A stretch of 64,000 nt of DNA from Candidatus Latescibacterota bacterium (GTDB lineage Bacteria; Latescibacterota; UBA2968), in assembly GCA_965222605.1 (NCBI GenBank), contig OZ244960.1, positions 5,664,001 to 5,728,000 on the forward strand, read 5' to 3'. The position numbers and the translations under genes are program-made. A model generated the notes under the pieces. That model saw only the letters and a program-made list of their open reading frames with translations, did not search any database and was not told the DNA's origin. Position 1 is the stretch's first letter. Every line of letters begins with the position of its first letter. Below are positions 1 to 64,000 of this stretch, piece by piece.

Positions 1-1811
1 TGGCGAAGCCGTATGTAGTAGGCATTCTCTTTGAGCGGATGCTCATCCACGTAAGTCAGATCTACGTCCAGCGTGTTCGGACGCCAGGTCTTCAAGCGTC
101 GATCATTCCGGATGAGATCTACGCGCTGCACTGTTGAGCATGCGTGAGCTACCACACGAACTCTGGCTGGGCCTGAAAGCTGTATCTCGCTGCCAGCGGG
201 ATTGCCCTCTAGCGAAACCATCAGAATGATTCGAGCCCCAGTCGTTGCAAAGGTTCGTTTTTCAGCGACAGCTTGCCAGATGGCCTTTCGTTCACAGCGA
301 GTGGCCCACACACCTGCCAGAGGACCCGATCCAAATCCGGTGTCACGGATGTTGAGCACCTTGTTGAACCGACCCCGGAAGCAATGGGGAGCCATTGGGG
401 CGCCCAGTGTGGGCAGATGGATATCTCCCGATCCGATAACGGCTGGTCGATAGCCGTACCTTAGTGCCTTCTGCAGGAGCCACTCGAAAGCGCCGTGACC
501 GCTGGCCACTTCCAGCAGTGGTTCGACATTTGGCCGAAATTCGTCCCAATTTGGCGGCCCCCCTCCAACGTGGGATTCAAGAAGAACATCCTCCCGATCT
601 CCGTAGGTTTCCAGCAGGGTTTCCTTCGACGAAAAGGTCGGCAGGTACCCATCTTCCATCTCCCGGAACACAACGTTTCGGTCCCCTCCAGAGCGCGTGT
701 GAACTTCCGATGCCAGGAAGGGCACATATATTCCGGGCTCATCATGATTGGTATATGCCTGTTGAAAGGCTTCCCACAGTTCAGGTTCGTCAGCCTGATC
801 TGGTGGCGACATGGGCCCCGGAGCCGCAAAATCCAGCCGTCCCACTTCGCGGGCTTGCCTGTGTCGGGCATCCGGATCCAGCTTGAAACTGGGCTCGTCC
901 ATCAGCGCCATGGACGTATCGCCCCAGGCGTGGGAGTGAAAGTCTCCCCAGAGCAGCCGGAAGTCCGGAGACTTCCGGCAGAATATCGGATTGCTTCTGG
1001 CTCGAAGGTCTCCATCCCTCGCTTCAAGGCGATAAACGCCTGGGTGGCCAATCTGAACGTCCTCCAACCTCAGGACGCCGTTATGTACTGGCTCAAACAC
1101 CGCTCGATCCGGCAGGCCCGATACGTTGTCGGGGGCAGTTAACTGGACGACGCCCTGATATTGTTCACACACATTTCGATGGATATCGAAAGCGACCAGA
1201 TTGAGGTGAAACGATTCGCCCTGTTCGACAATGGATGGTCCCAGGATTCGCAGCATATCTGCGGATGCTTCTGAAGTAATGCGAATCCGGGTCTCTCCAC
1301 CCGCGATGCTGACAAATTCACGGCCGCCATTGCGATCTACCGCTGCCTCCAGTCGCGCCATTGTAGTCGAGTCATAAACTTCAGCACCTGGACCACCCCC
1401 GCAGCGATCACCGATTCGCAATCTGACCCAATCTCCCTTTCGAAGGATCCCTTTCGACACTCGAACCCTCGCAACTTCGGGTTCGTGACCATGGTCGGAA
1501 TTGACAGCCAGGTCCAGCCTGGCGTCAGAATTTGACTCCATTGTCACATAGTCGCGTCCCAGTGGGTTATTCAGCTGAGGGGCGTGGCCCATGAGGAATC
1601 CGCGGCGGAAGAAGCAGAATCCTCCACCATCCTGCACATCCGCTGCAGCAGTAAATGCGATCTCCCATGTGCCGACTTTCCCAGCAGGCAGATTGAATGT
1701 GGATCCCGATGCAACAGAACCATCTGCACCTCGAAACAGGACCTCAAATCCGTCGGGTTCATCCCCGGGAATCGAGGCTTGGATCCACTCTATGCGAGCG
1801 TTTTTTGACAT
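1..1811 (-). CDS. DUF3604-like (PHP-fold/CehA-McbA-type) metallohydrolase, paralog of 5921..8161; 3' end runs off the window
   Basis: Absent from the ORF track because it has no stop in the window. Hand translation from ATG 1811 gives MSKNARIEWIQASIPGDEPDGFEVLFRG...LLWGDFHSHAWGDTSMALMDEPSFK...ENAYYIRLR, colinear with the 746-aa ORF (LLWGDLHCHGWGDISM...EGAYYVRLR). Same frame at both ends. Confidence 0.85.
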   Translation of the reverse strand, partial: MSKNARIEWIQASIPGDEPDGFEVLFRGADGSVASGSTFNLPAGKVGTWEIAFTAAADVQDGGGFCFFRRGFLMGHAPQLNNPLGRDYVTMESNSDARLDLAVNSDHGHEPEVARVRVSKGILRKGDWVRLRIGDRCGGGPGAEVYDSTTMARLEAAVDRNGGREFVSIAGGETRIRITSEASADMLRILGPSIVEQGESFHLNLVAFDIHRNVCEQYQGVVQLTAPDNVSGLPDRAVFEPVHNGVLRLEDVQIGHPGVYRLEARDGDLRARSNPIFCRKSPDFRLLWGDFHSHAWGDTSMALMDEPSFKLDPDARHRQAREVGRLDFAAPGPMSPPDQADEPELWEAFQQAYTNHDEPGIYVPFLASEVHTRSGGDRNVVFREMEDGYLPTFSSKETLLETYGDREDVLLESHVGGGPPNWDEFRPNVEPLLEVASGHGAFEWLLQKALRYGYRPAVIGSGDIHLPTLGAPMAPHCFRGRFNKVLNIRDTGFGSGPLAGVWATRCERKAIWQAVAEKRTFATTGARIILMVSLEGNPAGSEIQLSGPARVRVVAHACSTVQRVDLIRNDRRLKTWRPNTLDVDLTYVDEHPLKENAYYIRLR

Positions 1812-12157: not shown

Positions 12158-12187
12158 TGGTCACATCCTCTTGGCGCTCTTACTTAG

Positions 12188-12393
12188 ATCATGCCCGTCA
12201 CTTGCATCGCGACTCTGGCAATCTCAGAGAGTGCGCATTCGCCGGTGACGCGATCGCCGAGTTTCAGGCTGTAGAGGGCAATCACCATCGTCCCGACAGG
12301 GGATTCGACGAAGCCGACATCATTGATTACACTCCGATTTGAGCCGGTTTTGGAACCCCAGCGATAGGTCCTGGAGGTCGGCACATATCGGCC
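12188..12393 (-). repeat. 206-bp diverged direct repeat of the 3' end of the 13110..13901 gene (second copy 13114..13319)
   Basis: Hand alignment is ungapped with 12 mismatches in 206 nt; encodes the last ~68 codons and has no start codon. Confidence 0.95.
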
Positions 12394-12656
12394 TAACTCG
12401 CAACTGATTTCCCTCGTATGTACTCAATTAAACGGACATTCACTAGAGTTTCAATCGATACGCCTTGTGCTTGGGCACTCTGCCAGAGTTCTTCTGCTAT
12501 TTCAGGTAGTATCGCAACGCGAACTGCTCGCTTGTGTGGCGTATCAAAGCGAAACCATTCCCCATCATCTTCCATAAAATCAGCCGTATCCAGTTTATCC
12601 CAAAATGTAGCTTCCTCTTCATAACTCTCGAATTTTGGGACTTGTAACTCTTTCAT
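12393..12656 (-). CDS. CopG/BrnA-like antitoxin
   Basis: PKFESYEEEATFWD N-terminus plus RHH-like C-terminus; ATGA overlap with the upstream toxin. Confidence 0.8.
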   Translation of the reverse strand: MKELQVPKFESYEEEATFWDKLDTADFMEDDGEWFRFDTPHKRAVRVAILPEIAEELWQSAQAQGVSIETLVNVRLIEYIRGKSVAS

Positions 12657-12925
12657 TTTCTCAGCCTCCTGAAGTTTTGTTTTTCACGGTCGGTCATATC
12701 TCGAGCGGTAATGGATTTATAAACTGTACCGCTAAGATGTTCCAAGACGACAAATAGATACCGCCCATCCGCTGTCTGTCCATAAAGCCGATACCGGTTA
12801 CGTCCTTGACGACGAGCTAAATGTAATGGATCCCCACAAACTTCCCAGACTTCATCTGGTTCCACATTGTGTTGAGCAATATGTTCAATGCGATAGTCAT
12901 CCCAATCCAATCTGCTGATAAACAT
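12653..12925 (-). CDS. BrnT family toxin
   Basis: WDD..IEHIAQH.V...E..EV, GQT.DGRYLFVV, ITARDMT.RE. Confidence 0.85.
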   Translation of the reverse strand: MFISRLDWDDYRIEHIAQHNVEPDEVWEVCGDPLHLARRQGRNRYRLYGQTADGRYLFVVLEHLSGTVYKSITARDMTDREKQNFRRLRK

Positions 12926-12984
12926 GTTTCTCCCGAGTTGTTTTTTATTTTTATTATGAAACTGTTAGTCCTATTTGAGATTAT

Positions 12985-13074
12985 ACCCATGATTAGATGC
13001 ACCGGGATACGGGTACCTTTAATACAGACTTGTCCGTGACAAACTCTGGGATCAATGGCAATACGTTCCTGCAT
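12985..13074 (-). pseudogene. truncated DUF433 antitoxin (first ~30 codons)
   Basis: MQERIAIDPRVCHGQVCIKGTRIPVHLI with a GGAG RBS, then AT-rich unrelated sequence. Confidence 0.75.
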
Positions 13075-13109
13075 TTTTTATCTCCATTAAAAGGACTTTC
13101 ACTTCTTAC

Positions 13110-13901
13110 CTATATCATGCCCGTCACTTGCATCGCGGCCCTTGCAATCTCGGAGAGCGCGCATTCGCCGGTGACGCGATCGCCGAGTTCCCGGCTGTAG
13201 AGCGCAATCACCATTGTCCCGACAGGGGATTCGACGAAGCCGACATCATTGATTACACCCCGATTCGAGCCGGTTTTGGAACCCCAGCGATAGGTCTTGG
13301 AGGTCGGCACATATCGGCCGATGCGGCGACCATTCTGTTGCAGGGTCAAGGTGGTGAGCATGGCCTGACAGGCTGCGGGGGATGCGGCCTGATCGTCGAG
13401 GATTGTCTTGACGACGGCAGTGTAGTCATTGGGTGTAGCCCAATTTTCCTGTTCCCCTTCAACCGCGAGGCGCCCGCGCATGGGACGTCCGAGAGAGGAG
13501 GCGGTCATACCGAGTTCTCGCATTGTCGCGTTGATGCGATCCATTCCGGCCACTTCAATCAATATGTTGGTGGCGGTGTTGTCGCTGATGGACATCATCA
13601 AGTAGAGGAGATCTCCAAACGACAGTTGCAGCCCGGTATGCATGTGTCGCAGCACACCACTGCCGGGGGATTTATCTTTAGAGCGGATGATATATGTGTC
13701 GTCGAGCGCGAGTGTGCCGCGATCAATAGCTCTGTAGATCTCGATCATGATCGGGATTTTAACTGTGCTGGCCGCCGGAAACTGATGATCACCCCGTGAG
13801 GCCCAATTCTCCCCCCGAGGCGAAATCACACTGACGCCGATCGTGCCGTGCGATTCGTACGTTTTAACCGCTTGTTCTATCCTACTCCAGTCTGTGGTCA
13901 T
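13110..13901 (-). CDS. serine hydrolase, class A beta-lactamase-like
   Basis: STVK, SDN and KTG motifs; no signal peptide. Confidence 0.88.
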   Translation of the reverse strand: MTTDWSRIEQAVKTYESHGTIGVSVISPRGENWASRGDHQFPAASTVKIPIMIEIYRAIDRGTLALDDTYIIRSKDKSPGSGVLRHMHTGLQLSFGDLLYLMMSISDNTATNILIEVAGMDRINATMRELGMTASSLGRPMRGRLAVEGEQENWATPNDYTAVVKTILDDQAASPAACQAMLTTLTLQQNGRRIGRYVPTSKTYRWGSKTGSNRGVINDVGFVESPVGTMVIALYSRELGDRVTGECALSEIARAAMQVTGMI

Positions 13902-56592: not shown

Positions 56593-56621
56593 GTAAGGAC
56601 AGGTTTCAAACCTGTCCTTAC
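56593..56621. repeat. REP-like perfect palindrome GTAAGGACAGGTTTCAAACCTGTCCTTAC
   Basis: 14-bp arms around a single central base; same family as the palindrome inside the RAYT gene. Confidence 0.85.
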
Positions 56622-56643
56622 GCGACCATACCTACGCTCAGGG

Positions 56644-58056
56644 TTAATTATGACGATGGTGGTAGCCCGTTTCATCTTCCAGCCAGTCAATAGCCGTTTG
56701 TTCGTCTTGATCGATAGCCATTTCCACCGCTCGCTTGGCACATTCTAATAGATGTTTAGATTGCTTTCGCAGGTTGAAAGACTCGATTACTTTTTGCTGA
56801 ATTTGAGTTTGTTTTTCCTCTACGATTATTGGCAATATAACCTTGCCAAATTCATCTTTATTGATTGCTGTAAGAATTGTACCGCTGCATCCTTTTTTGA
56901 GTTGTAATTGCCCAACGATACTTTTCAATAGTACAAGCAAAGTTTCTGAATTGAATGTCTGTGAGTTGACTGCATGGAATCCAGTAGAGCAAAGAGCTTG
57001 ATCGTATTCCTCATTTATCAGGGCGATGCTGTCCAATGAACCCTCTATAGATGAAACAATGACATCTCCCATTGCTACCTTACGCCTTGCTCTACTTGGC
57101 AAATCTTGACCTTGCGCTATCATGCTGTCGGTGATTTCACCATTGCCTGCGATATTTGCCAGTTCGATATATTTGTAATCTTGTTTGTCTTCAGGATGAT
57201 AATTCTGCGCTTTCAGGTTTAACAAATTCCGCAGTCTATCCCATCCGCCCGCATAACTCTTAATCGCGTGGACTATTTCTTCGTATTGCGGCTGAAAATA
57301 ATCAGCGTCAATGCGTTCTGCCCGTTGGGTGTTAGAGTAGTTTTTGACAAAGGTTAAACGGGGTTTGGGTTGCCATTTGGCAAGTCCGAGTTCGGAGAGG
57401 AGGATGGTTTGGGCTTGAACATATTCATCATCGGATTGCGATTTTATTGTTTGGCTATCTGAAACAACATCCTCTATTTTTTTTTGAAAATTTGTCCCCA
57501 TTAACGGCACTGGTAACTTAGCTAAATTAACCAGACTAATGTATGGATTCATCTGTTCAGTCTTTAAGCTATCAGCTAAACCCTGACCGAAAGAACAGTT
57601 AAAATATACAGCCAAAAAACCCGATAATAGATTTGCTTTCGGACGAATCAGAGCTACATCTTGATTCAGAGCCATCTTCTTAGTTTTTGATAGGAAAGGA
57701 TAAGCCTTACAAATTCTTCTTTTTATTGTACAAACTACCGATCCTTGACTGATGATTTTATTTTTATACTCTGACTTATACTGCTCATTGGTTATGCGTT
57801 TTGTTTTCTCATCAAAAAACTCCAGGTCGCCTATACATTCGACAGTTATAAAAGGAATTTCACCGCTACTCACATCATGCTTGTAAGGAGTATGTCCCGA
57901 TCCTATAAAATCGACTTCTTTTCCCAAAGTTGAAAACCGTAACCGCTTTTCTCGTTTAAGAAATTTTTGGCGAAATGGGTGAGAGTAAAAATCAGCATCA
58001 AGCCTCATATCTGATTGTTGCAATACATTAGAGTATTCGAGCACAGAATAGCGCAT
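56644..58056 (-). CDS. restriction-modification specificity subunit (HsdS-like, two TRDs)
   Basis: Repeated RLDADFY/RIDADYF motifs, two TRD-like halves and helical spacers; AT-rich first TRD. Confidence 0.85.
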   Translation of the reverse strand: MRYSVLEYSNVLQQSDMRLDADFYSHPFRQKFLKREKRLRFSTLGKEVDFIGSGHTPYKHDVSSGEIPFITVECIGDLEFFDEKTKRITNEQYKSEYKNKIISQGSVVCTIKRRICKAYPFLSKTKKMALNQDVALIRPKANLLSGFLAVYFNCSFGQGLADSLKTEQMNPYISLVNLAKLPVPLMGTNFQKKIEDVVSDSQTIKSQSDDEYVQAQTILLSELGLAKWQPKPRLTFVKNYSNTQRAERIDADYFQPQYEEIVHAIKSYAGGWDRLRNLLNLKAQNYHPEDKQDYKYIELANIAGNGEITDSMIAQGQDLPSRARRKVAMGDVIVSSIEGSLDSIALINEEYDQALCSTGFHAVNSQTFNSETLLVLLKSIVGQLQLKKGCSGTILTAINKDEFGKVILPIIVEEKQTQIQQKVIESFNLRKQSKHLLECAKRAVEMAIDQDEQTAIDWLEDETGYHHRHN

Positions 58057-58119
58057 TTTTGATTTCCTTGCAAAAACGACAGTGTTTAGATTTTTATTAT
58101 TTTGAGATAGAATACTCCA

Positions 58120-58875
58120 TTATTCAGTTCTCTGATCCCTTTTTTCAATGCTTTCTTTATCTTTTTGAGGGAGGCGATTGAACATCGCTTCAATTTGCTT
58201 AGGTTGAGTAATCAAGGTATCGGCAATTACATTTATCAAGTCAAAAAGTGCCTGAACATCGGTAGTGTCGTCGAAGTCAATTTTACCAGGATGAACCGCA
58301 TGATTGCCAGTTACTCTCACAATATCTAATGCTTGCTGTATTTTTGGATCAAGTTCCTTTACCACCAGATTTTTTATGTCGTTATTAATATTATCTCCCG
58401 TTTCTCCAAGTTGTTTGAGAAGCATTTGTATAGCTAATCGCAACAAAGCACAGGCCGCACGAGGAGACCGATTAGCAATATCAGCGGCCTCATTGTAAAT
58501 TTTTTTTATGCCGTCATCTAAATCGTCATTTGCTGACGGAGATGTGCGCGTGGCAGGGTACATAATTTTTGCAACCCACTTTGGCCGCGTATCAATCCCG
58601 GCCGCGTGTGCGACAGCCGATATCTCCGGAGGCGGAATCTTTAGGGCAACCAACCAAAATGTTGGTTTCTTACAATGCGAACATAAAGAGATTTTCACTT
58701 CATTATCGCCAATTTCAAGAGGTATCAATGTATCAGCACTATACTTGTCAGTGGCTTCTTTAGCTTGTTGAAGGCAATCTTCCCAAGTTTGCTTTGCATA
58801 GGCGCTGCAATAGGGGCAGTTAAATGCCTTACTTCCATATTTAGGGGGATAATATTTAGATATGATTTTAGGCAT
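58120..58875 (-). CDS. DUF4145 (HEPN-like) protein with N-terminal Zn ribbon
   Basis: CPYC...CSHC, IYNEA...SPRAACALLR, RVTGNHAVH (RxxxNxxxH). Confidence 0.85.
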   Translation of the reverse strand: MPKIISKYYPPKYGSKAFNCPYCSAYAKQTWEDCLQQAKEATDKYSADTLIPLEIGDNEVKISLCSHCKKPTFWLVALKIPPPEISAVAHAAGIDTRPKWVAKIMYPATRTSPSANDDLDDGIKKIYNEAADIANRSPRAACALLRLAIQMLLKQLGETGDNINNDIKNLVVKELDPKIQQALDIVRVTGNHAVHPGKIDFDDTTDVQALFDLINVIADTLITQPKQIEAMFNRLPQKDKESIEKRDQRTE

Positions 58876-58917
58876 TATCATCTCCAAAACTCAAATTTTT
58901 TGATTTTGCCCATTTAG

Positions 58918-59445
58918 CTAAAGATTGTCTGGGTTGTCCGCATCTAATGCCCATTTTAAGGGATTGTTTCGGATGTACACCCGGATGTTGTCCAAAGATT
59001 CTTCGTCCCGGATGATGTGGTCGTAAAATGAACGTTGCCAGCGAAACAATTCGGATCGCGATGTTTCATTGATACGACGGGATGAGAAGGTTTTGAAGCC
59101 GCGTATAAATTCGGATATACCATGGCGTCTGGTAGAGACAGGTTTCAAACCTGTCTCTACACCATCATCATTTGTCCCTACCTTATTATTTTTTATGAAC
59201 AAAATACCGTGTATATGGTTTGGCATAATTACCCATTCATCCAATGAAAGATTGAAGTAATGGTTAGGCAAATCTAACCAGCATTGGCGAACAATTTTCC
59301 CATATCTGTTTAATTTCATCTGTCCACTGTTTATATCTCCAAAATAACGCATTCTATTTTGCGTACAAATCGTGACAAAATAATATCCCGCCTGTGAATA
59401 ATCGTAATTCTGTAATCGGTTCGGTTTTCTATTTCGGTTATTCAT
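58918..59445 (-). CDS. REP-associated tyrosine transposase (RAYT, IS200-like Y1 HUH)
   Basis: YDYSQAGYYFVTIC, IMPNHIHGI (HUH), WQRSFYDHIIR, YIRNNP..W. Confidence 0.9.
   Translation of the reverse strand: MNNRNRKPNRLQNYDYSQAGYYFVTICTQNRMRYFGDINSGQMKLNRYGKIVRQCWLDLPNHYFNLSLDEWVIMPNHIHGILFIKNNKVGTNDDGVETGLKPVSTRRHGISEFIRGFKTFSSRRINETSRSELFRWQRSFYDHIIRDEESLDNIRVYIRNNPLKWALDADNPDNL
59132..59160. repeat. REP-like perfect palindrome GTAGAGACAGGTTTCAAACCTGTCTCTAC inside the RAYT ORF
   Basis: 14-bp arms; translated in frame as VETGLKPVST. Confidence 0.88.
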
Positions 59446-59452
59446 TATCGTC

Positions 59453-59535
59453 CTACAAACTCAATCCTTCATCTTTTGTCCAACTGCAAAAGTAGCGGCT
59501 CCGTCGCATCTTCGCTCGGCAATGCTATCCGACAG
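59453..59535 (-). pseudogene. degenerate copy of the methylase 3' end
   Basis: LSDSIAE...WTKDEGLSL* versus LPDGIAE...WAKGEGLSFW; shares CTCAATCCTTCA exactly with 60111-60122. Confidence 0.7.
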
Positions 59536-59546
59536 CCATTGCTATA

Positions 59547-59951
59547 TCACAGTATTGTCACGCGAACCGTTGCAAATTCTTTGATCTTGCTAAAGTCTCT
59601 CTTGTTGTAGGTCATCAGTTCCGTACAGTGTGATTCCGCAATCGCCGTATGAATACAATCATTGATGTTTCTGAACCCGACACGATTAGCCATATCAAAC
59701 GCCCTTCGCAGAGTTTCTATGTCATAAGCGAGAGGCTCCAATTGCATGACTTCATTGTAAATGCTGTGGATAACCTCATCTTCAATGCCCAACTTTGCAA
59801 GAACAAATAACAATTCCTGAACAGTAAGGGTTGAAATGACCGCAATGTCATTGTCATTCGCTTGCCTGATGAGTTGATTGGCTTGTTGATTTTTCTCAAC
59901 ATCCTGAACGACATAGGCATTGACCAAGACATCTGTGTCGATGTAGATCAC
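59547..59951 (-). CDS. VapC-like PIN-domain toxin
   Basis: IYIDTDVLV, STLTVQE, NDCIH.AIA, TYNKRDF; GTGA overlap with the methylase stop. Confidence 0.88.
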   Translation of the reverse strand: MIYIDTDVLVNAYVVQDVEKNQQANQLIRQANDNDIAVISTLTVQELLFVLAKLGIEDEVIHSIYNEVMQLEPLAYDIETLRRAFDMANRVGFRNINDCIHTAIAESHCTELMTYNKRDFSKIKEFATVRVTIL

Positions 59952-62203
59952 CCTTCAAGCTCCATTTCCATATCGTTCATTTCGTCGGCCAGGCGGGAGA
60001 TGTCGATATCAGGATCGACATAGAGCCTCCGGTTGCTATTGTTGTTGACAATGTTCTCCCATGCCTTGCGCCGTTTGTTGTCAAGCCTATCTTCCCCATT
60101 TTTCCAAAAGCTCAATCCTTCACCCTTCGCCCACTCAATAAACGCCTCTGCTATCCCATCTGGCAATTCTTCATCGTGGTTATGCAAATCGTGGTCAACG
60201 ATCAGATGGCCGTTTCTGTCCAACTTGTCCTGTCCGATCTCATTTTTGAAATAGACATAATCGCCAGAGTTATCCTTACCACCTTTTTCGCTCACGGCAA
60301 AGAAGATGGGGTAGTCATCCACTTTGGGGCAAAGCGGCCCTTTTTTTGGATCATCATTCCACTTTTGCAGAAATAACACGCTGGTTTTAGTGCCTGTATG
60401 TGGCTTAAAGGTATTGCCATGTAGCCCAACTACAGCCAGGATGCGGGCCTGATCTGTGACAAATGCGCGAATATGCTTATCTGTTGTGTTGTTGAATCTG
60501 CCCTGCGGTAGCACAATCGCCATGCGCCCACCGGGCTTTAGAAAGTCCAGATTGCGCTCAATAAATAGGATATCGCGCCCGACTTTGCTTTGCGCCTTGC
60601 CGTTTGCCTTAAAGCCAAGTTCGTATTGATGCAAAAGGCGACTTTCCTTGATGTCTCCGGCAAAGGGTGGATTTGCCATCAGAATATCAAAATTAAACCG
60701 CTTGTTTTGGCCTCTTCTGGCTCTCAATTTTTCTAATCGTCTAAAACCATCGCGATAAGTGTCTCGCCATTTTACATCTTTCTCGGTCCTGTCGCTCCAG
60801 CGTTCAAAATCCAGCGTGTTCAGGTGCAAAACATTGGTTTCGCCATCTCCGGCGATCAGGTTCAGCGTGCGAGCAACGCGGACGGTTTTTTCGTCAAAGT
60901 CTATGCCGAACACTTTTAAGATATTTTCTCTTTCCTCAGCCTTTATCTCAGCATTGCCGAACAGATGTCCCGTGAGTTTGAAGATGGTATGCACCGGAAA
61001 ACCACAACTGCCGGAAGCAGTATCAATCATGTATTCACCGGGTTGAGGGTTGAGCATTTGTACGCACATATCAATGACATGACGAGGCGTAAAGTACTGT
61101 CCTTTTTCGCCTTTGGCGGATTTGTTGACCAGATATTCAAATGCTTCATCCACGATCAGCAGGTTGGAGTTAAATAGTTTGACGTCCTGCAAGCTGGACA
61201 CGCAGACGGATAGATGGCTGTCAGAGAGTTCAAATGTCGATTCTTCGGGAAAAACGCCCTGCCATTTATTTTTAGCCTGATCAAAAAGGCTTTGTATTTT
61301 CTCTTTCAGTTCCGTATCAGTCTGTCCTGTATTCCTGAACTCCATTAGTCTGAACCCTTCATCAGAGACCCCATTAACCGCCGCTTTAAGAGCTTCATAA
61401 TCCTGTCCGTCGAGGTAGTCTGGTCGCTTAGGTTCATGTACAGCCGTTTTTATAACCTGTCGCATAAAATAGTTGATAACTTCTTTGTCTGGCTGGCTAA
61501 GAAATTCATCATAGAGCTTGGTAAATATGAGCTTGAAAACCTCCTCGAATACATCGACCCCGGCATTTGCCAGAACTTCATCCTCCATTTCCAGAATAAT
61601 GTCTTTCAAGGATTTCCGCTCATTGGCGATTTTGTCTTTGATGATCAGGTCTTTCAGCGTAAAGTTTTCGCTGAGTATATCTTCAAGACTCTGTTTGCTG
61701 TTGGGAATATCGGTGATGTCTTCAAAGTAATTGGGATCTTTGCGGTGGTAATGGGAGATCTGCTCGCCATTCGTCCATACGCCAATCGGTGCGCCTGTGG
61801 CGTTGCAATAGGATCGGAGCTGGTTTTTGCCGTCTTTGAGCTTGGGCTTTTTTAATTCAACAATGATATAGGCGGTATCAAAACGGTCTTTGTCGAAGAT
61901 GACAATATCGGCCTTTTTCTTTTCCCTCCCAAAGTTGACCGGATGTTCAAAGCCCAATCGGTTTTTGGGATATCCATACTGATTGATAAGTCTTGTAGCA
62001 TAAAGCTGGCGGACAATCTCTTCGGGTTTTAGCTGGATATCCTTATCCCGCACAATGCACTTCACATGCGGGTTTTCTTTGCCACGGACAGTTTTGAGGA
62101 AAAATTTGGCACGCAGATCGTCAATTTCATCTTCCGAGAACAAGGCAAGATGATAATTGCTGTCTTTGAGTATCGCCTGGATAATGTCCGATTGTTGTGT
62201 CAT
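59948..62203 (-). CDS. restriction endonuclease-N6-adenine methyltransferase fusion (HSDR_N_2 + N6_Mtase, type IIB/IIG-like)
   Basis: PEEIVRQ, ADIVIF, VELK, WTNG; GQYFTPRH, DTASGSCGF, ANPPF, LKPGGRMAIVLP. Confidence 0.9.
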   Translation of the reverse strand: MTQQSDIIQAILKDSNYHLALFSEDEIDDLRAKFFLKTVRGKENPHVKCIVRDKDIQLKPEEIVRQLYATRLINQYGYPKNRLGFEHPVNFGREKKKADIVIFDKDRFDTAYIIVELKKPKLKDGKNQLRSYCNATGAPIGVWTNGEQISHYHRKDPNYFEDITDIPNSKQSLEDILSENFTLKDLIIKDKIANERKSLKDIILEMEDEVLANAGVDVFEEVFKLIFTKLYDEFLSQPDKEVINYFMRQVIKTAVHEPKRPDYLDGQDYEALKAAVNGVSDEGFRLMEFRNTGQTDTELKEKIQSLFDQAKNKWQGVFPEESTFELSDSHLSVCVSSLQDVKLFNSNLLIVDEAFEYLVNKSAKGEKGQYFTPRHVIDMCVQMLNPQPGEYMIDTASGSCGFPVHTIFKLTGHLFGNAEIKAEERENILKVFGIDFDEKTVRVARTLNLIAGDGETNVLHLNTLDFERWSDRTEKDVKWRDTYRDGFRRLEKLRARRGQNKRFNFDILMANPPFAGDIKESRLLHQYELGFKANGKAQSKVGRDILFIERNLDFLKPGGRMAIVLPQGRFNNTTDKHIRAFVTDQARILAVVGLHGNTFKPHTGTKTSVLFLQKWNDDPKKGPLCPKVDDYPIFFAVSEKGGKDNSGDYVYFKNEIGQDKLDRNGHLIVDHDLHNHDEELPDGIAEAFIEWAKGEGLSFWKNGEDRLDNKRRKAWENIVNNNSNRRLYVDPDIDISRLADEMNDMEMELEG

Positions 62204-62249
62204 GATTCCTCCGCTATAATATGCTTACGACGCGAGAGCGTTGGGTGCG

Positions 62250-62480
62250 TCACACTGGTTCCCCATCCTCGGAGGAGTAAATGTCTTCTCCCTCCTCCTT
62301 CCAGAAGTCAAATGCACCACTTTGTTCCGCCAGGCGCATGATATCCCATGTTGGCACAGCATCTTCCTGCCTCTGCACGGTAATTTCTTCATAGCGTTGC
62401 GCGAGTTCTACCAGTCGTTCGAGTTCGTTTTGCGGAACCAGCACTTTCTCACCGATGTATTGGATGTGAATTGTTGTCAT
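62250..62480 (-). CDS. small acidic antitoxin-like protein
   Basis: 76 aa, AGGAG RBS, C-terminal SGAFDFWKEEGEDIY typical of small antitoxins. Confidence 0.55.
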   Translation of the reverse strand: MTTIHIQYIGEKVLVPQNELERLVELAQRYEEITVQRQEDAVPTWDIMRLAEQSGAFDFWKEEGEDIYSSEDGEPV

Positions 62481-62515: not shown

Positions 62516-64000
62516 GTAACTATTTAGGTATGTGAGTAATCAAGGGTATAGTTGTGTTCTTTCAAGACCAGTGCAAGTTCTTTCAAGACAGGGATGCGCT
62601 GTTTTCTCAAGGTTGAGAGGAAGGCTTGGAGGCGTGCATATCTCTTGGCCCCTGCCAAGGTGCGAAAGCATGTGGCGACTTTCTGTTTGACTTTTGCCGG
62701 GCGCAAGTCTCGTTCGGCTTGATTATTGGTGAACGGGACAGCATGGTGAAAGGCAAAGGCCAATACCGCGTCTTGATGTGTGATGAGCCGTTGGAGTAAG
62801 TTATAGGCACGACTACCTTTTGCCCGTCCCTTCTTGCCAGTCTTCTTGACAGGTGGCGGTTCCTTCTTTTGGGCATAAAGGAGCAGACGTTGATAGATTT
62901 GGCGGGCTTTGGGCTGCTTCGCTTCGGGCAGATTGGTTGTGCCTTGCACACTCATGCGATAAAGGGCTAAGAGGAAGCGGTGCATGTGCTTGGCCCATCG
63001 GCTCCCATTCTCATAGGCATCGGTGAGTTCGCGCAGGAGATGTGCACCGCAAAGACTATGGCGACAAGGCCAAGAGGTGAAATAGCTCGCATAGCTATCG
63101 TGGACGGCCCAACCGGGGAAGGTGTTAAGCACCGAATCGGCTCCTTGCAACGCCTCACGTCCCCGTTTTTGATGCACGAACAAATGTGTCTCGTGTCCTG
63201 TGCTTGAGACATGCAGCCAGTGCAGGCGGCCTGCTACCCTCAGTCCGGTCTCATCAAAATGCGCCACCGGACTTGCCATCAGCCGTTTCTTAATCACCGA
63301 TTCGGTCTTTTCTAAGCCCCGATAGGCCAAGTCCAAGGCATCCTGTTGCGTGCTTTCATTGATGCCATGCCCAAACAGGTCTTCAAACAGATGCTTGATT
63401 TTCTTGAACGGAAGCCGATAGTCCACATTGAGCAGACAGGATAAGGCACGAACACGCGACCCATATTGCACCGGCGCAGAGATAGGAGGTGGAAAGCGAG
63501 AAGTGTGATAGGCGCCACAGCGCGAACAAGAACACCCAAAGGTCTGATATTCGGTCACCACCATACGAGGCTCTGGCAGATCAAAGCATTGGCGACGCGC
63601 AAGCAGACTTTGGGCAGCGGTGGACAAATCCTGACCGCAAGAACACTTTTCAACCCGCAGGGGAACCACCACATCAGGCGTCTCAACCTGCGACAACGTT
63701 TGACCCTTATGACCGCGCAGACCACCGCGCCGACGCTTCTGACTCGACTTGGGAAAGGCTGGCTTTTTGCGATATCCCTCGCTGGATGGGGGACGATGGC
63801 TATTCTGGCTATCTTGACCTACTTGCCGCTTGAGGCGGGCATTTTCTTCGCGTAATTGCACGTTCTCTTCGCGTAATTGCTCAGTCTCAAGACTTAAGCA
63901 CTCATGCCCTGCTTCCAAGTGCTCAATGCGACTTAATAACTCATCTATGAGGTGATGAAGGCCAACAATATCTTCTGGACGACGCAATTCCACATCCTTT
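62516..64000 (-). mobile_element. IS66-family element (single-ORF type); other end outside the window
   Basis: Terminus GTAACTATTTAGG at 62516 overlaps the transposase stop; IS66 ends begin with GTAA. Confidence 0.75.
62524..63993 (-). CDS. IS66 family transposase
   Basis: Coiled coil, NSHRPPSS, Zn finger, HFDETG, VHD.Y..Y, LCGAHLLREL, FTNNQAERDLR..KVKQK. Confidence 0.95.
   Translation of the reverse strand: MELRRPEDIVGLHHLIDELLSRIEHLEAGHECLSLETEQLREENVQLREENARLKRQVGQDSQNSHRPPSSEGYRKKPAFPKSSQKRRRGGLRGHKGQTLSQVETPDVVVPLRVEKCSCGQDLSTAAQSLLARRQCFDLPEPRMVVTEYQTFGCSCSRCGAYHTSRFPPPISAPVQYGSRVRALSCLLNVDYRLPFKKIKHLFEDLFGHGINESTQQDALDLAYRGLEKTESVIKKRLMASPVAHFDETGLRVAGRLHWLHVSSTGHETHLFVHQKRGREALQGADSVLNTFPGWAVHDSYASYFTSWPCRHSLCGAHLLRELTDAYENGSRWAKHMHRFLLALYRMSVQGTTNLPEAKQPKARQIYQRLLLYAQKKEPPPVKKTGKKGRAKGSRAYNLLQRLITHQDAVLAFAFHHAVPFTNNQAERDLRPAKVKQKVATCFRTLAGAKRYARLQAFLSTLRKQRIPVLKELALVLKEHNYTLDYSHT

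Follow-up and report, generated by a model that had tools for sequence, protein, structure and literature searches.

Decayed copies of a methylase gene end among the cargo genes of a restriction-modification operon in Latescibacterota

C-terminal displacement was reportedly described for rhs genes by Jackson et al. in 2009. The portions of a later study available to us treat the process for rhs, for orphan modules of contact-dependent growth inhibition (CDI) systems and for the effector-immunity arrays of Vibrio cholerae's type VI secretion system (T6SS), and its authors propose homology-facilitated illegitimate recombination and draw a parallel with integrons (Kirchberger et al. 2017, PMC5361080); a further paper is, from the part at hand, associated with a displacement process of the rhs/T6SS type (PMC3240628). 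Here we describe a similar arrangement in a stretch of 64 kb from a Candidatus Latescibacterota bacterium (contig OZ244960.1, positions 5,664,001 to 5,728,000; this whole stretch is called the window, and feature coordinates are positions within it). It contains a tightly packed restriction-modification (RM) operon, read on the minus strand (62203-56644), in which genes for a PIN-domain toxin, a RAYT-like transposase and a DUF4145 protein stand between the RM methylase gene and the gene of the specificity (S) subunit, and in which decayed copies of the conserved 3'-end of the methylase gene precede the second and the third of these cargo genes.

As in the rhs and T6SS arrays, insofar as the accessible text describes them, a conserved gene part would serve here as the anchor, a new 3' part would enter together with an attached gene and the old end would be shifted downstream, all without an integrase. 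Two features of a displacement array were found at this locus: a conserved upstream gene (73-89% identity, 80 loci) is followed by a variable downstream module, and downstream modules stand behind 3' fragments of the conserved gene in the window and in about a dozen other loci. The locus differs from those arrays in that the anchor is the very end of the RM methylase gene and not the pre-toxin region of a toxin; the displaced piece is a non-coding scar of 20-140 nt instead of an orphan toxin tip; the cargo consists of unrelated, stand-alone defence, toxin and transposase genes rather than cognate immunity genes; and the same scars occur at unrelated housekeeping genes of the genome.

Toxin and defence genes embedded in RM operons have also been described, among them HEPN, RhuM, Fic/Doc, PrrC and PIN (Anantharaman et al. 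2013, PMC3710099; Matelska et al. 2017, PMC5499597; PMC9881135), and the loci studied here resemble what the available portions of those papers report, with RhuM, Fic, DUF4145/HEPN and PIN genes lying between the core RM genes. Those portions are concerned with gene neighbourhoods, whereas insertion scars, a defined junction, a mechanism or a methylase-fused antitoxin do not appear in them. With integrons the locus shares toxin-antitoxin (TA) cargo and a stack of promoter-less genes that is ordered and runs in one direction from a single entry point, with the newest gene nearest to that point; unlike integrons it has no intI, attI or attC hairpins, and its repeats are pieces of coding sequence that are absent from most cargo. 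Islands and prophages that target tRNA genes or icd carry a replacement 3'-end for the target gene, and the old end is left as a direct repeat on their far side. Here, too, the target gene stays intact, the insert supplies the new 3'-end and the old end persists as a remnant, but those elements rely on a site-specific integrase and span kilobases, whereas the inserts at the present loci measure 0.5-5 kb, carry no recombinases and have many targets.

A last parallel is PrrC-EcoprrI, in which, according to the accessible part of the source, a latent RNase is held by a type I RM enzyme, PrrC being an ABC-HEPN anticodon nuclease in non-covalent association with the enzyme as a whole (PMC3710099). 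If the C-terminal extension of the present methylase binds the PIN protein, a toxic RNase would likewise be silenced by the RM enzyme of its own operon, with the difference that the toxin would be a VapC-like PIN and its holder a methylase-fused tail of 51 residues. Searches by word in open-access text found no earlier description of displaced methylase-end remnants at a methylase-S junction, nor of an RM methylase with a fused antitoxin tail. Cargo families in RM operons and displacement arrays in toxin loci are already known; no account of such displacement in RM operons turned up in these searches.

Copies of the methylase gene end in the operon

The peptide WAKGEGLSFW, which an original prediction had taken for the 3' tail of the methylase, corresponds to residues 691-700 of a protein of 751 aa and is followed in this genome by 51 more codons. 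Among the 80 related loci, whose methylases are 73-89% identical to that of the window, the stop codon lies 1-4 codons past the position of W700 in 57, 7-9 codons past it in three, and after an extension of 14-63 codons in 20. Because 57 of the 80 homologues stop within four codons, the W700 region is the ancestral, normal gene end of the family; the predicted tail is thus an old gene end and not the one that the gene has at present.

The genuine tail, taken as the last 75 nt of the conserved core, lies at 60104-60178 on the minus strand and ends at W700 (…ELPDGIAEAFIEWAKGEGLSFW), the WAKGEGLSFW codons (TGGGCGAAGGGTGAAGGATTGAGCTTTTGG) occupying 60133-60104. A DNA profile of these 75 nt, made from 81 methylase genes, was run over both strands of the window. 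It recovered the window's own tail first (E 1e-18), copy 2 second (E 0.011 with nhmmer on the whole window) and copy 3 third (E 0.24 on the window and 0.16 on the gaps between methylase and S), and all the remaining matches had E values of at least 1.1. Copy 2 is a decayed methylase 3'-end of about 79 nt (59457-59535, minus strand), composed of LSDSIAE, an insert of about 20 nt, FA, a 1-nt frameshift and WTKDEGLSL-stop; its core part (59482-59453) continues via GACGATA (GGACGATA) into the ATG of the RAYT gene at 59445. Copy 3, also decayed, is about 37 nt long (58886-58922, minus strand) and reads KWAKSKNLSF with 1 nt missing before GG; its core part (58912-58884) continues via GATGATA (GGAGATGATA) into the ATG of the DUF4145 gene at 58875.

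The tail and the two copies, at 26 nt each, formed the top-ranked direct-repeat family between 56.5 and 62.3 kb, with identities of 21/26 between tail and copy 2, 16/26 between tail and copy 3, and 18/26 between the two copies. When each spacer was shuffled 5000 times with its dinucleotides preserved and scored with a profile that lacked the window's own tail, the real score was reached by none of the shuffles of the PIN-RAYT spacer and by one of those of the RAYT-DUF4145 spacer. A 30-nt weight matrix gave 21.8 for copy 2 and 15.2 for copy 3, against a maximum of 5.5 in 771 control gene starts of related loci. Sequence reading, profile and shuffles together bear out what had been predicted of these copies, namely their minus-strand positions, their continuation into the next ATG and a similarity to the methylase tail that is significant against shuffled controls.

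Both copies are bridged by contigs assembled from three runs of two studies: the X15 contig spans 57346-60988 and the X17 contig 58524-59884, each with 0 differences, and the X19 contig spans 57283-59884 with 21 differences. The array is therefore real DNA and not an artefact of one assembly. In a separate contig (X1), position 56693 is joined to 62234, skipping the operon; this joint has 24 letters on one side, was judged unreliable and was not used.

A possible fourth trace (TAAACACTGTCGTTTTTG, 58071-58088, minus strand) lies 13 nt before the S start. Its score of 8.5 with an 18-nt matrix is equalled or exceeded by 7 of 772 control gene starts, which is nominal support, and the 75-nt profile did not detect it, either in the window scan or in the version used for the shuffles. 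It has a TCG serine codon, as live methylase-S junctions do, whereas copies 2 and 3 have AGT, a contrast to which we attach little weight. We treat it as a weak candidate for a trace. The idea that each cargo gene is preceded by a tail copy accordingly holds for RAYT and DUF4145; the PIN gene stands behind the 51-codon extension of the live methylase and not behind a copy.

The Shine-Dalgarno sequences of the downstream genes lie inside the remnants or junctions: AGGA before RAYT, GGAG before DUF4145 and AAGGA before S. Divergence of the copies was considered as a clock and rejected, since two genuine tails are as unlike each other (median 18/26) as a copy and a genuine tail are (median 17/26), and distance from the methylase therefore cannot be read as age. 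Copy 2 is nearer to a foreign genuine tail (L080, 24/26) than to its own (21/26). No attC-like fold was found by DNA folding, in which the genuine tail gave a z of +1.8 and the copy 2 spacer a z of -1.2; the copy 3 spacer has just a 10-pair A/T hairpin (-4.9 kcal/mol).

Related loci, mosaics and scars elsewhere in the genome

The 80 related loci come from Latescibacterota, Chloroflexota, Poribacteria, Nitrospirota, Pseudomonadota, Thermodesulfobacteriota, Bacteroidota and other phyla, many of them from metagenome-assembled genomes (MAGs) of sponge-associated bacteria. In the plain form of the locus, S comes right after the methylase, and the junction consists of the TGG of W700, about three codons with GGAGG, the stop codon and ATGCA; the S start lies 15-18 nt past the W700 codon and the S Shine-Dalgarno sequence is contained in the last codons of the methylase. 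The gap between W700 and S was longer than 60 nt in 46 of the 72 loci with an identifiable S gene (window included). In a second sample of 80 metagenome contigs, 12 of 54 scored loci had such a gap, with cargo including RhuM, RhuM-Fic, Bro-N and PIN together with DUF4145.

Cargo was assigned with Pfam and PADLOC. The extension with PIN was found in 14 loci, RhuM in nine (one fused to Fic) and two metagenome loci, DUF4145 in five and one metagenome locus, RAYT in four, Bro-N in three and one metagenome locus, MazF with a small partner in three and DUF5677 in three; the remaining inserts encode NYN, DUF488, IS transposases or unknown proteins. In a tree calculated from the core of the methylase (76 rows; the tail was excluded, and three loci with in-frame stops and two that were too short were left out), the cargo state changed at least 30 times, the minimum possible being 11 and the mean of shuffled states 45.9, and none of 200 shuffles was as low. 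These numbers indicate that cargo is partly inherited and often exchanged. The methylase-S junction is a cargo hotspot across phyla, with a gene content that varies among homologous loci and is not fixed, as predicted.

The RM family itself, a fused nuclease-methylase with S, moves widely between phyla. An identical methylase core of 500 residues occurs in a Candidatus Spongiihabitans MAG (L046) and in an Ekhidna (Bacteroidota) MAG (L048), reflecting either a very recent transfer between phyla or a binning mix-up. In L048 the RhuM gene is intact and there is no scar, and in L046 a truncated RhuM gene is fused to 140 nt of the methylase 3'-end.

Extra tail copies downstream of cargo, always on the coding strand, were detected in about a dozen other loci, as had been anticipated, with E values that reach 1e-5 to 1e-16 and lengths from about 18 to 140 nt. 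They follow PIN in L006, L008 and L013 and RhuM in L010, L020 and L039 (27-45 nt), and others are present in L012, L046, L138, L199 and L122; in L030 the order is tail, truncated extension, second tail and DUF4145. When the profile was run on the 46 gaps of more than 60 nt, 12 plus-strand matches (10 loci and the window) ranked before the first minus-strand match. Two loci have more extensive duplications: L001 carries a second copy of the methylase 3'-end of 720 nt, about 7 kb downstream and behind an IS element, and L072 contains rearranged methylase 3' fragments.

The genes that follow the window's copies recur next to tail ends elsewhere. Wherever RAYT lies downstream of a methylase (five genes, in front of S or on a contig that has no S), it begins 1-7 nt past a tail end; in L025 and L043 this tail is genuine, and in the window, L010 and L012 it is a remnant. 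The window's junction of copy 2 with RAYT (…GGACGATA-ATGAATAAC) agrees with the one between the live methylase and RAYT in L043 (…GGACGACA-ATGAATAAC). Longer remnants of the copy 3 type precede DUF4145 in L030 and in two congeners, G032 (…IE*VKDGNLSFWR-stop, then ATG) and G003, and the DUF4145 gene stands behind a live tail in L038 and L070; by these comparisons, copy 3 is the gene end that goes with DUF4145. The PIN-linked remnants of L008 and L013 (WTKDE) have in common with the window the left part of copy 2 as well as the 10 nt past the PIN stop codon. Copy 2 therefore looks like a hybrid whose left part is an old remnant linked to PIN and whose right part is a tail end linked to RAYT.

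Two remnants are mosaics. The one in L199 shares 56 of 60 nt with the live tail of its locus in the left part and only 13 of 20 nt at the end, and L046 shows the same pattern, the drop in identity near the end indicating a crossover inside the tail. We propose that in such mosaics the segment between the join and the crossover was duplicated from the recipient, and that the last nucleotides of the live gene came from the donor together with the cargo.

The starts of the remnants are clustered: in L008, L013, L006, L030, L012, L138, L199 and copy 2 they lie 62-83 nt before W700, and positions 367-388 of a 450-nt profile were obtained for four cargo types (PIN, RhuM, RhuM-Fic and unknown). None of the explanations considered in this work accounts for this clustering.

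The same kind of scar was found at other genes. At 12.2-13.3 kb of the window, where the same logic had been suggested, a class A beta-lactamase-like gene has its final 216 nt (13104-13319) duplicated at 12178-12393 with 94% identity, and the two copies flank a cassette (12394-13103) with a DUF433 fragment, BrnT and BrnA, in agreement with that suggestion. The DNA after the beta-lactamase-like gene differs from genome to genome among the congeners, and one of them (G017) has further partial copies of the end of this gene. Compared with 11 congeners, the upstream copy is 91-97% and the other 89-94% identical, a difference that does not decide which copy is the incoming one.

A k-mer scan of the 6.3-Mb genome gave 84 isolated direct repeats, 21 of which were inspected, and at least five more scars were recognised, a count that is a lower bound (L088, 180000-186500; L089; L090; L091; L092). 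Each of these has a complete gene, cargo, a copy of the gene's 3'-end and the next gene. The target genes and their cargo are an AlbA_2 gene with HEPN and RmuC; a PhyH gene with an AAA-PD-(D/E)XK protein and an Xre-like protein; a second PhyH gene with two ABC transporters and TnpB; an unknown gene with an AbiEii-like ATPase and Phd; and a GNAT gene with APH and a methyltransferase. The genes in these five inserts are of TA, defence or other accessory kinds, and no integrase is encoded among them. The six duplicated 3'-ends of the genome measure 156-535 nt and are 88-94% identical, with mismatches spread along the whole length of the repeats, which points to two different alleles rather than a fresh duplication. 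In three of the six scars, the point where the cargo ends and the displaced copy starts coincides with 6-12 nt of microhomology.

Origin of the array

We lean towards reading the array as a set of stacked recombination scars, left by serial displacement of 3'-ends and anchored on the conserved gene end, and regard this account as fairly probable. The donor DNA would come from another allele and consist of the 3' part of its methylase and the gene that follows it there. It would pair with the resident methylase through the conserved 3'-end, which acts as the anchor, and its other end would be joined illegitimately, often at microhomology, upstream of the stop codon of the resident gene. That gene would in this way gain a new 3'-end plus cargo, and the old 3'-end, still attached to its former next gene, would be pushed downstream as a non-coding remnant. 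Repetition of these steps would yield the order methylase, extension and PIN, copy 2, RAYT, copy 3, DUF4145, possibly trace 4, and S. The remnants would then decay from the 5' side, and their last 15-20 nt would survive because the next gene has its ribosome-binding site there. What we infer in this scheme is the sequence of events, the enzymes of recombination and the co-transcription of the operon. The data fit homology-facilitated illegitimate recombination that displaces the old 3'-end; a linear fragment and a circle integrated by a single crossover give the same product, and the data cannot separate these two routes.

Support for the conserved gene end as the recombination anchor, which the original prediction had put forward, comes from the L199 and L046 mosaics and from the two-allele repeats of the genome. 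Several observations weigh against it. Live tails of one cargo type resemble each other in their last 27 nt no more than tails of different types do (0.692 in both cases), giving no linkage between tail end and cargo type. For Ser698, 25 of 26 loci with S directly after the methylase use a TCN codon and 42 of the 54 that have cargo use AGY (raw counts, Fisher 5e-11), but this association was lost under phylogenetic control, where six independent pairs gave about 1.8 changes the same way, 0 opposite and the rest unchanged (p 0.5). Among remnants tabulated by eye, a small set that is not independent, AGY was seen in 0 of 6 before S and in 7 of 11 before other genes, a pattern in keeping with the association. 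When a donor was sought among the 80 live tails, the tail parts of copy 2 and copy 3 had no clear nearest relative, and L043 stands out solely through the RAYT start.

Further objections concern how general the scars are. Most cargo loci had no detectable remnant in the run on 46 gaps, so scarless exchange or scar loss must be the rule, and the tail copy is to be regarded as a frequent scar and not as an obligatory part of a cassette; the notion of one tail per cassette is qualified on this ground. More than one remnant was found only in this window, and the idea of successive rounds is based on one array together with loci of a single scar. Derived letters are common to the PIN-linked remnants (window, L006, L008/L013 and, probably, both L030 and L035), which likely go back to one old event that was inherited or transferred as a block. 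Finally, no tail-to-tail joint and no cargo-less or excised form was seen over 56600-62300 in the contigs of four runs, a type of data that drops rare variants.

The last of these observations bears also on a different explanation, which we consider improbable: that units of tail plus cargo, looped out between tail copies or circularised at microhomology, are reinserted as circles at the live tail by a single RecA crossover of the Campbell type, which would amount to an integron-like system that lacks an integrase. Such circles would yield the observed order of gene, homologous segment, cargo, homologous segment and next gene, with an illegitimate junction between the cargo end and the downstream copy; mosaics would be expected if the crossover fell inside the homologous segment, and the recurrence of cargo types on different methylase backgrounds would follow. 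With 16-21 of 26 nt matching, however, the old remnants are by now too diverged for recombination, and too short as well; the tail-tail joint is missing from the contigs, and most cargo, having no second tail, could not loop out.

The gene end may alternatively have had no anchoring role, the methylase or a part of it having been duplicated by IS activity or by a second RM allele and then trimmed from the 5' side, with the piece containing the ribosome-binding site kept by selection. The 720-nt copy behind an IS element in L001 and the rearranged fragments in L072 are of the type that this would produce; L046, with its truncated RhuM gene and 140 nt of methylase 3'-end, resembles a deletion product; remnant lengths are spread between about 18 and 140 nt; and each next gene has its Shine-Dalgarno sequence in the remnant. 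We nevertheless think this unlikely, because it leaves unexplained the switch of ancestry inside the tail in the mosaics, the microhomology joints of the young scars elsewhere in the genome, and the start of remnants at 367-388 of the profile for four cargo types.

That clustering of remnant starts, together with the fact that all five RAYT genes downstream of a methylase abut a tail end, could instead suggest a site-specific recombinase acting in trans, such as the RAYT/Y1 transposase or an unlinked integrase, on the last 70-85 nt of the methylase gene. This is very unlikely: there is no integrase near the locus (51.7-64 kb), the tail has no hairpin (fold z +1.8), RAYT is missing from most cargo loci, and the six scars of the genome use unrelated target genes with no common site. 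The absence of an integrase agrees with the predicted integron-like array, a likeness that, with no attC-like fold, is one of analogy only. Chance, or convergence imposed by ribosome-binding sites and codon constraints before start codons, is hardly credible: the best-kept part of every remnant does overlap the Shine-Dalgarno region and the fourth trace is only nominally significant, but shuffles gave 0 and 1 in 5000, none of the 771 control gene starts reached either copy, copy 2 aligns to 59 profile positions well upstream of any ribosome-binding site, and other loci have E values of 1e-5 to 1e-16.

Under serial displacement, a larger statement can be made, which we offer tentatively and would sooner doubt than defend as a whole: that the last 70-85 nt of the methylase are a real capture site across many phyla, at which host homologous recombination without an integrase has repeatedly added defence and toxin genes to the methylase-S junction, every addition being marked by a displaced gene end; that gene-end anchoring is a general route for TA and defence genes in sponge-associated Latescibacterota, with at least seven scars in this genome; and that an RM enzyme with a fused antitoxin restrains the PIN RNase. 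If this were true, loss or inhibition of the RM enzyme would free the PIN toxin, making a PrrC-like guard built from a TA module, and a methylase-fused antitoxin, if real, would be a compact coupling of a suicide RNase to the integrity of the RM enzyme. The clustering of defence genes in RM operons has been known, with their route of arrival left open, and the scars may be a readable record of it, showing the entry point at the methylase gene end, the order of arrival and a mechanism that needs homology on one side. C-terminal displacement would thereby be extended from polymorphic-toxin loci to RM operons and, in this genome, to ordinary genes, offering a simple explanation for the growth of defence islands without integrases, and remnants of conserved gene ends could be used as a search key for newly captured defence genes.

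The fused extension, the history of the locus and the genes of the operon

The 51-codon C-terminal extension of the methylase lies at 59951-60103 on the minus strand, and its stop codon overlaps the GTG start of the PIN gene (GTGA). PIN was present in 14 of the 20 loci with an extension (at least 14 codons past W700) and in none of the 60 without one, every PIN-carrying locus having the extension; six loci have an extension but no PIN, and in three of these it is truncated. In PIN, the acidic residues D5, E46, D98 and D119 are invariant in 12 sequences. A small DNA-binding antitoxin gene directly upstream of PIN, as in VapBC, was not found, the methylase extension being located at that place. 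Free-standing relatives of the extension were not found either, all 10 small homologues (28-90 aa) being methylase-derived fragments. Going by its co-occurrence with PIN, the extension is probably an antitoxin fused to the methylase that would neutralise PIN. PIN genes in HsdM-HsdS operons without an antitoxin gene were noted earlier, according to the accessible portion of the source (PMC5499597).

Homologues of 70 aa were considered as free antitoxins and rejected, because they are internal deletions of the methylase. In one of them (L108, G031:C1:3509097-3512306, 1323-1710, minus strand), an open reading frame (ORF) of 70 aa fuses methylase residues ~170-188 directly to the extension, and of PIN only the C-terminal half comes after it. 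Its sequence marks it as a deletion relic of a second copy of the RM locus in a Caldilineaceae genome, and it says nothing about addiction.

The methylase has been kept in four of 20 congeners, with the arrangement methylase-extension-PIN-S in G001, an IS element after the extension in G016, a shortened extension and then S in G010, and methylase-S-RAYT in G018. Three others have decayed loci at the same chromosomal site beside purC: G002 retains the PIN end, a degraded equivalent of copy 2, RAYT and a truncated S, and G032 and G003 retain tail and extension fragments, a remnant of the copy 3 type and DUF4145. Since the order methylase with extension, PIN, remnant, DUF4145 and S is found without RAYT in a Caldilineaceae MAG (L006) and a metagenome contig (L123), it probably predates the RAYT insertion that split it in the lineage of the window.

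The RM-methyltransferase gene (59948-62203, minus strand) encodes 751 aa in which a nuclease-type domain and a gamma-class N6-adenine methylase are joined in one chain. Pfam assigns HSDR_N_2 (nuclease-like, N-terminal; 7e-28) to residues 60-167 and N6_Mtase (2e-33) to residues 351-620; the PADLOC model MTase_I (PDLC03034, 1.5e-293) stops near residue 701, and the nearest solved chain is that of the type IIB enzyme RM.BsaXI (8w0p, 7e-18). No HsdR gene was found inside the operon by Pfam on the operon genes, the rest of the genome not having been searched for one. The PIN-domain (VapC-like) toxin gene occupies 59547-59951 on the minus strand (Pfam PIN 2.8e-14).

The zinc-finger and DUF4145 (HEPN) gene (58120-58875, minus strand) matches Pfam DUF4145 at 1.6e-17 and PADLOC PD-T7-4 at 1.6e-78 over residues 6-249, and by these matches it is a homologue of the single-gene defence system PD-T7-4/RAZR. 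PD-T7-4 has since been renamed RAZR, a HEPN RNase in the available part of its description (PMC13017515), and the translation has the features described for RAZR, CPYC…CSHC (CxxC…CxxC) and RVTGNH (Rx4H). The S gene, type I-style (56644-58056, minus strand), was recognised by PADLOC Specificity_I (PDLC03181, 4e-62, residues 18-465) and had no Pfam match. In runs X17 and X19, which belong to another study, its 3' half (56793-57378) differs at many positions and has had stretches replaced, the remaining operon being nearly identical; this is the usual swapping of target-recognition domains.

The RAYT-like Y1 (HUH) transposase gene (58918-59445, minus strand) matched Pfam Y1_Tnp at 1.5e-7, with 32 bits for a cut-off of 23, and NCBIfam REP_Tyr_transpos with 71.1 bits, under the cut-off of 80. 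It had been counted as toxin or defence cargo and is neither. A palindrome, GTAxxGACAGGTTTCAAACCTGTCxxTAC, occurs in five copies in the genome (window 59132-59160 and 56593-56621; genome positions 722116, 860686 and 2652606), too few for a typical REP family. The first of these REP-like copies is in frame within the RAYT gene (…VETGLKPVST…); the second forms a terminator-like hairpin with a 13-bp stem (56593-56621, minus strand), immediately 3' of the S stop codon and 2.5 kb downstream of the RAYT gene. A consensus scan found no terminator-like sites in the intergenic spacers of the operon and two inside coding sequence on the same strand.

Besides the operon, the long ORFs between 51.7 and 64 kb encode, by Pfam, an IS66 transposase, a TPR protein, a glycerol kinase, a metallophosphoesterase and SAICAR synthase, with no integrase among them. 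Just upstream of the methylase lies an ORF of 76 aa that belongs to no known family (62250-62480), and beyond it the IS66-family transposase (62524-63993) reaches the edge of the window. An IS66 copy also breaks up the cargo region of L008.

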